Shown here: one piece after another, positions 55,644 through 55,757 of the stretch | How the letters are laid out: every line of letters starts with the position of its first letter | Numbering within the stretch: position 1 is the first letter of the stretch | Source: Escherichia coli | GTDB lineage: Bacteria; Pseudomonadota; Gammaproteobacteria; Enterobacterales; Enterobacteriaceae | Reading direction: 5' to 3' (one strand) | Length of the DNA stretch: 64,000 nt | Assembly (NCBI RefSeq): GCF_003334785.1 | Contig: NZ_QOWV01000009.1 | Notes under the pieces: model-generated | Told to the model about the DNA's origin: nothing | Seen by the model: only the letters and a program-made list of their open reading frames with translations | The model's database searches: none | Translations under genes and position numbers: made by a program

Positions 55644-55660
55644 CAAACTAGTACAATTTC
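55644..55660 (-). promoter_or_regulatory. TrpR operator-like site upstream of aroL
   Basis: AAACTAGTACAATTT contains the ACTAGT core of Trp repressor operators; ~75 nt upstream of the aroL ATG. Confidence 0.4.
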
Positions 55661-55739
55661 GATTGTAAAGAAAAAATTCCACTTAAAGTGAAAATCTCAA
55701 TACACCCCTTACTATACCAATAAATATTCAAGAATGAAG

Positions 55740-55757
55740 TGTAAATAATAAATTACA
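55740..55757 (-). promoter_or_regulatory. TyrR box upstream of aroL
   Basis: TGTAAA-TAATAA-ATTACA matches TyrR box consensus TGTAAA-N6-TTTACA with one mismatch; a weaker TGTAAA-N6-ATTCCA lies at 55664-55681. Confidence 0.55.

Follow-up and report, generated by a model that had tools for sequence, protein, structure and literature searches.

The yaiI-aroL intergenic region

The DNA analysed is a 64-kb stretch of an Escherichia coli contig (NZ_QOWV01000009.1), referred to below as the window. The locus of interest carries the genes proC, yaiI, aroL, yaiA and aroM in that order; yaiI, aroL, yaiA and aroM are on the minus strand, and proC runs in the opposite direction, on the plus strand. The aroL coding sequence, encoding shikimate kinase 2 (174 aa), occupies 55052..55576 on the minus strand with its ATG at 55576. 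The yaiI coding sequence occupies 55759..56217, also on the minus strand, with its stop codon at 55761..55759. Between them lies a gap of 182 bp (55758..55577) with a G+C content of 35%. An earlier note on this DNA, made from the sequence alone, had proposed a cluster of regulatory sites in an interval that covers most of this gap, and had identified yaiI and aroL correctly.

Sequence comparison of the yaiI-aroL stretch with K-12 MG1655 revealed a single SNP, inside aroL. Many complete E. coli genomes match the segment 55000-56400 at 100% identity, and it was found in 5426 of the 5426 genomes searched. The region is almost certainly the known promoter-operator of the E. coli aroL-yaiA-aroM transcription unit.

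The aroL promoter and leader

Two published sets of start sites were used, from Kim et al. (2012) and from Cappable-seq. Both tables are in U00096.2 coordinates, which are 776 lower than those of NC_000913.3. The offset of +776 was checked against the data: only at this offset are 63 of 81 local starts purines, and do 36 of 81 have a TANNNT -10 element. Cappable-seq positions near 406,28x, considered as starts of aroLp, were dropped on account of the U00096.2 coordinates and this offset. Kim et al. (2012) give a single start for aroL, at 405502 (U00096.2/NC_000913.2), with 136 reads, a 5′UTR of 127 nt and an upstream sequence ending in TTGGTATAGTAAGGGGTG. The same position appears in the Cappable-seq table with an RRS of 4.74 and an enrichment of 6.23, and differs by no more than 1 nt from the curated start that underlies a CRISPRa guide table.

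The start, here called P1, is a G at 55703 on the minus strand (MG1655 406278), 127 nt upstream of the ATG. The long leader expected in the earlier note is therefore borne out by both start-site datasets and by the guide table. As a sigma-70 extended -10 promoter we counted a TGnTATAAT-like element for which a primary 5′ end has been mapped 6-9 nt further downstream. At P1 the element is TGgTATAGT (55711..55719, minus strand), with the hexamer TATAGT at 55716..55711 and the start 8 nt downstream of it; this element is invariant among the relatives described below, and the start is present in both datasets.

The leader itself (55577..55702, minus strand) has a Shine-Dalgarno-like GGGGAA at 55590..55585. 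Its predicted fold is not unusual (z = -1.0) and a search of the leader against Rfam gave no match, and leader RNA structure was dropped on these grounds. The ribosome-binding site is preceded, at a distance of about 20 nt, by a small 4-bp hairpin, UCGC-N6-GCGA (55610..55597, minus strand). Citrobacter retains this hairpin in the form CCGC-N6-GCGG, and Salmonella and Kosakonia retain it with longer stems; the compensatory changes are few and the covariation term is small, which is weak evidence. The leader also contains an open reading frame of 21 codons (55638..55573, minus strand), whose ATG lies inside TATGAT and whose TGA overlaps the aroL ATG (ATGA), and which is uninterrupted in each of the 25 relatives with the same geometry. 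Its codon-position values of 0.30/0.32/0.35, compared with 0.05/0.06/0.37 for aroL, show no periodicity, a second leader frame is also open in 22 of the 25, and Kosakonia has no ATG for it. We therefore rejected it as a coding sequence. The IHF site reported in the literature could not be placed in the yaiI-aroL gap: the gap contains no match to the IHF consensus WATCAANNNNTTR with one mismatch or fewer.

TyrR boxes

The TyrR box consensus in the literature is an 18-bp palindrome, TGTAAA-N6-TTTACA. Sequences were taken as TyrR boxes when they matched this palindrome and kept the G at position 2 and the C at position 17. Three boxes lie upstream of the aromatic biosynthesis gene aroL and bracket the mapped start at 55703; G2 and C17 are retained in all three, which have one, two and four mismatches. 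The boxes are numbered 1 to 3 from the gene outwards, presumably as in the literature and secondary sources on aroL.

The strong upstream box, box 3, reads TGTAATTTATTATTTACA on the minus strand at 55740..55757 (TGTAAATAATAAATTACA on the plus strand) and has a single mismatch. It extends from -54 to -37 relative to the P1 start, and from -181 to -164 relative to the aroL ATG. This is the near-consensus box of the earlier note, which is indeed present, on the strand of aroL. It had been placed 2 nt past the yaiI stop codon, which fits the sequence: one base separates the stop (55761..55759) from the beginning of the box at 55757.

The downstream box, box 1, is TGGAATTTTTTCTTTACA at 55664..55681 on the minus strand (TGTAAAGAAAAAATTCCA on the plus strand), with two mismatches, at +23 to +40 of P1 and -105 to -88 from the ATG. 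The middle box, box 2, is weak: TGTATTGAGATTTTCACT at 55687..55704 (minus strand) has four mismatches, covers -1 to +17 of P1, and lies at -128 to -111 from the ATG. From centre to centre, box 3 and box 1 are 76 bp apart and box 2 and box 1 are 23 bp apart. The second box of the earlier note corresponds to box 1. It is present, but to call it weaker was misleading, as it is conserved and functionally important; the truly weak box is the middle one (55704..55687), which had been overlooked.

In the whole 64-kb window there are four TyrR boxes with two mismatches or fewer, against 2.4 expected, an unremarkable number. Two of the four lie 76 bp apart in the yaiI-aroL gap. The two others each have two mismatches, at 7148-7165 (TGCAAATGCGTTTTTACG) and 47141-47158 (AGTAAATACTCGCTTACA), in a window whose count is at the level of chance.

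A putative TrpR operator with one good half-site

The consensus TrpR operator was taken as the 18-bp palindrome GTACTAGTTAACTAGTAC, with two CTAG cores 8 bp apart. The putative operator at aroL, GTACTAGTTTGATGGTAT, occupies 55637..55654 on the minus strand, from +50 to +67 of P1 and from -78 to -61 relative to the ATG. Its left half is a perfect GTACTAGT (8/8, 55647-55654), an 8-mer that is unique in the window and contains the ACTAGT core at 55647-55652. The right half, TTGATGGTAT, is poor, so that the left half alone is a good match and the full 18-mer is more than three mismatches from the symmetric consensus. A scan with the full TrpR consensus, allowing up to three mismatches, gave no match, and a full-consensus TrpR operator was dropped from consideration in favour of the half-site.

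The TrpR-like site with an ACTAGT core had thus been recognized at the right place in the earlier note, but the interval given there began at 55644 and clipped the right half, which runs to 55637. The estimate that the cluster lies within about 180 bp upstream of aroL was accurate, the sites spanning -181 to -61 from the ATG at 55576.

A weak antisense start is found nearby, at 55665 on the plus strand (405540, minus strand, four reads, assigned to proC by Kim et al., 2012). It is 7 nt downstream of a TACAAT (55653-55658, plus strand) that lies inside the TrpR half-site, and probably represents divergent initiation at the level of noise.

Conservation among relatives

A scan with the AroL protein, using one genome per species, yielded loci from Escherichia species and clades and 18 loci from Citrobacter. 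Look-ups of exact proteins added Salmonella enterica, Enterobacter, Kosakonia and Intestinirhabdus, and all of these loci have the proC/yaiI/aroL/yaiA/aroM synteny. Conservation was expressed as identity to the E. coli base in the 25 Escherichia and Citrobacter sequences.

Over the whole yaiI-aroL gap the identity is 0.72. The TG and TATAGT of P1 are at 1.00, and the TrpR half-site GTACTAGT is at 0.97. The arms of box 3 are at 0.99 and its spacer at 0.87, and for box 1 the corresponding values are 0.92 and 0.77. Conserved arms around a freer spacer are thus characteristic of boxes 3 and 1, but not of the middle box, the arms of which are at 0.61, below the value for the whole gap. Both good boxes stay in place, at about -181 and -105 from the ATG. 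Salmonella, Intestinirhabdus and Kosakonia have both good boxes and the TrpR half-site in the same order and with the same spacing as E. coli. Lawley and Pittard, in 1994, reportedly found one TrpR site and three TyrR boxes at aroL, of which box 2 was dispensable and the other two were essential. The pattern of conservation seen here agrees with that account, the outer boxes being conserved and the middle one not.

Every one of the 28 loci with this arrangement has box 1 at the fixed position of -104 to -108 from the ATG. Elsewhere the only box is at -55 (Enterobacter) or at -128 (Winslowiella). In the Enterobacter cloacae complex (locus L047, 1057-1200) the gap is 144 bp and contains a single TyrR box, at -55, and no TrpR half-site; synteny is intact, and an extended -10-like element, TGGTACAGT, is found at -124. 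In the E. cloacae complex lineage the architecture of the operator has been remodelled. The absence of the TrpR half-site from Enterobacter agrees with a published comparative-genomics study, according to which only a few close relatives of E. coli have aroLM under the control of TrpR. In Klebsiella pneumoniae MGH78578 one aroL start has been mapped, with a 5′UTR of 144 nt and a TTTACA right at the start, and the upstream gene there is on the opposite strand (Kim et al., 2012). The long aroL leader therefore seems to be conserved even in a different neighbourhood.

A candidate second promoter

A promoter scan of 55400-56000 returned a single sigma-70-like match, at 55662..55634, and did not pick up P1. 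The match consists of a -35-like TCGAAA (55662..55657, minus strand; 4/6 of the -35 hexamer), a 17-bp spacer and a candidate extended -10 element, TGgTATGAT (55634..55642, minus strand), which overlaps the TrpR site. From this match a start was predicted near 55627 before the start-site data had been seen. The Cappable-seq table, from a mid-log culture in M9-glucose, contains a 5′ end 1 nt away from the prediction, at 405579 (U00096.2), which corresponds to 55626 on the minus strand (MG1655 406355). This candidate start, P2, is a C located 50 nt upstream of the aroL ATG and 8 nt downstream of the -10 element. Its TG and TATGAT are 100% conserved in the 25 sequences and the base at the 'n' position is 80% conserved. 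In other genera the -10 region reads TGATATGAT (Salmonella), TGATATCAT (Kosakonia) and TGGTATGAT (Intestinirhabdus).

One explanation is that there is no second promoter: the sequence TGGTATGAT would be kept as the right half of the TrpR operator together with its flank, and the signal at 55626 would be a minor or spurious 5′ end. We consider the chances of this to be even. The right half of the TrpR site does overlap the conserved block, and Cappable-seq yields many weak starts, 41% of its sites being novel. The start at 55626 is missing from the table of Kim et al. (2012), obtained in the same medium, in which P1 is the only start for aroL. Against this explanation, the conserved block runs 3 nt past the 18-mer, through GAT. 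Moreover, the variable position (55640, G/A) is an operator base matching the CTAG core, yet coincides with the free 'n' of TGnTATGAT, and Citrobacter sedlakii, in which the TrpR half-site has decayed, still has TGGTATGAT.

Alternatively, aroL may be transcribed from two promoters, TyrR shutting off P1 and the TrpR site, at -28 to -11 of P2, acting as an occluding operator for transcripts that would start at 55626 with a 50-nt leader. We hold this explanation tentatively, as a real possibility that falls short of being probable. The geometry from the -10 element to the start is identical at the two promoters, and the downstream TyrR box, which is also at -55 to -38 of P2, mirrors the position of the upstream box at P1. 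The RRS is 7.35 at P2 and 4.74 at P1. The scan match described above is the only one in the region, the 5′ end falls next to the position predicted for it, and TG and TATGAT are invariant, whereas the free 'n' is variable. Kosakonia retains TATCAT, and the persistence of the block in C. sedlakii points in the same direction. On the other side, the 5′ end comes from one dataset alone, the start base is a C, and the enrichment of 3.87 is lower than the 6.23 of P1. The conserved bases serve at the same time as the TrpR operator's right half, and for that reason conservation by itself cannot separate the two explanations. A literature search, within the papers that could be searched, found no mention of a second aroL promoter.

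If P2 is real, aroL would have two tandem promoters, each preceded by a TyrR box at about -46, and the TrpR site might be a classical occluding operator rather than a roadblock in contact with TyrR; this arrangement is conceivable, but we would not call it likely. The 'synergy' between TyrR and TrpR, long reported for aroL, could then be a matter of promoter arithmetic instead of cooperation between the proteins, which we again put forward with some reservation. With two promoters, P2 would contribute visibly only when P1 is repressed, and TrpR would consequently matter only in tyrR+ cells. In the experiments of Lawley and Pittard, inserting 4 bp between box 1 and the TrpR site is said to have abolished the effect of tryptophan and raised repression by tyrosine. 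Destruction of P2 would have the same outcome. A separate idea, that the two box-promoter modules arose as a tandem duplication, was rejected, as outside the TyrR box they are identical at only 12 of 45 positions (p = 0.69 in shuffles).

Transcription from yaiI and within the operon

The earlier note had also raised the possibility of read-through from yaiI. No terminator-like sites were found in 55400-56000, which spans the yaiI-aroL gap, and the distance from the yaiI stop codon to the beginning of the aroL promoter is about 20 nt. From the layout of the sequence, read-through from yaiI into aroL is plausible. TyrR bound at its boxes might act as a roadblock to such candidate transcription, a role that would suit both the missing terminator and the beginning of box 3 only 1 nt after the yaiI stop codon. 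In addition yaiI has a start of its own, at 56239, with an RRS of 6.45, comparable to those of the aroL starts. The tight abutment of yaiI and box 3 is not universal, however: the gap is 271 bp in Kosakonia and the layout differs in Enterobacter, and we consider a roadblock function unlikely.

The yaiI start just mentioned (minus strand) is at 404966 (U00096.2) in the Cappable-seq table, 22 nt upstream of the yaiI ATG and within the divergent proC-yaiI gap. A very strong Cappable-seq start is present further downstream, at 55027 on the minus strand (406178 in U00096.2; read score 719). It is 25 nt upstream of the yaiA ATG (55002), has TATACT 6 nt upstream, and is about 100 times as strong as the aroL starts. 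A different yaiA start, at 406145 with 14 reads, is listed by Kim et al. (2012). Evidently yaiA has a strong promoter of its own inside the aroL-yaiA-aroM operon.

Chance occurrence of the motifs

The frequency with which such motifs arise by chance was estimated by shuffling the 182-bp gap 20,000 times with its dinucleotide composition preserved. At least one TyrR box with one mismatch or fewer occurred with P = 0.0017, at least two boxes with two mismatches or fewer with P = 0.0005, and GTACTAGT with P = 0.0015. The strong box, two boxes and GTACTAGT were found together in 0 of the 20,000 shuffles. The explanation that the matches are accidents of an AT-rich intergenic region, to which the low G+C content of the gap and the unremarkable window-wide count of boxes might seem to lend some colour, has practically no chance of being correct, and is refuted by these shuffles together with the conservation of the site positions across five genera while the spacers vary.

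Reported control of aroL by TyrR and TrpR

The dual control of aroL by TyrR and TrpR put forward in the earlier note is documented, in that repression by both proteins is described in the literature, the TrpR input being weak. According to the comparative-genomics study, TyrR represses aroLM and TrpR represses aroL. Tyrosine converts the TyrR dimer to a hexamer, and the hexamer blocks RNA polymerase at aroLM. Knock-down of tyrR derepresses aroL (2025 preprint), and deletion of tyrR in Yersinia pestis raises aroL expression 4.7-fold. In the 2025 preprint, neither the transcripts of aroL nor a reporter were affected by trpR.

These reports and the arrangement described above suggest the following scheme. 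The sigma-70 promoter with the extended -10 element TGgTATAGT initiates at 55703 and gives rise to the 127-nt leader. Its two conserved TyrR boxes bracket it, one abutting the -35 region (-54 to -37) and the other in the early leader (+23 to +40), and the weak, poorly conserved box covers the start site. With tyrosine and ATP, TyrR dimers would assemble into a hexamer, as the literature describes. The hexamer could then join the upstream and downstream boxes, loop out the promoter and exclude RNA polymerase, a step that combines published findings with the geometry of the sites. TrpR with tryptophan, again following the literature, would bind beside the downstream box and add a small amount of extra repression.

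As the promoter is flanked by boxes on either side, a hexamer bridging the outer boxes around P1 is the best-supported model; the geometry and conservation are seen here, and for binding and looping the model relies on the literature. Nothing contradicts the TyrR part of this explanation; the TrpR part is weaker. The contribution of TrpR to the control of aroL is small: there is one good half-site, the site is 50 nt downstream of the start, and the preprint reports no effect of trpR.

The control region is already known, and what has been done here is to re-read the curated aroL operator from raw sequence. This is a useful check on the scanning method, and it adds no new biology. The candidate second promoter occluded by TrpR may be the sole part that goes beyond the known picture. 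If it is true, it would offer a simpler answer to the old puzzle of why TrpR has no effect at aroL unless TyrR is there, and it would be relevant to engineers who use the aroL promoter or its repressors in strains producing aromatic compounds and in biosensors.

Comparison with known systems

The closest known system is the K-12 aroL promoter-operator itself, which is at the same locus and has three TyrR boxes, one TrpR site and a start 127 nt upstream of the ATG. It is said to have been described by DeFeyter et al. in 1986, Heatwole and Somerville in 1992 and Lawley and Pittard in 1994. The candidate start at 55626 is not known to be part of the classical description.

At the aroF-tyrA operator, too, the hexamer that TyrR forms with tyrosine is the repressor, and it acts on several TyrR boxes placed around the promoter. 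In E. coli aroF-tyrA is not known to have a TrpR input, and the layout of its boxes relative to the promoter is unlike that of aroL. The other E. coli promoter under both TyrR and TrpR is that of mtr, which has a weak and a strong TyrR box and a TrpR box. The roles of the two proteins differ, however: TrpR is the dominant repressor at mtr, where TyrR is an activator, whereas at aroL it is TyrR that represses and dominates. In trpEDCBA a TrpR operator with CTAG cores overlaps the -10 region. The trp operator is a near-perfect palindrome, whereas the TrpR site of aroL matches in its left half only; should P2 exist, the TrpR site of aroL would overlap a -10 region just as the trp operator does.
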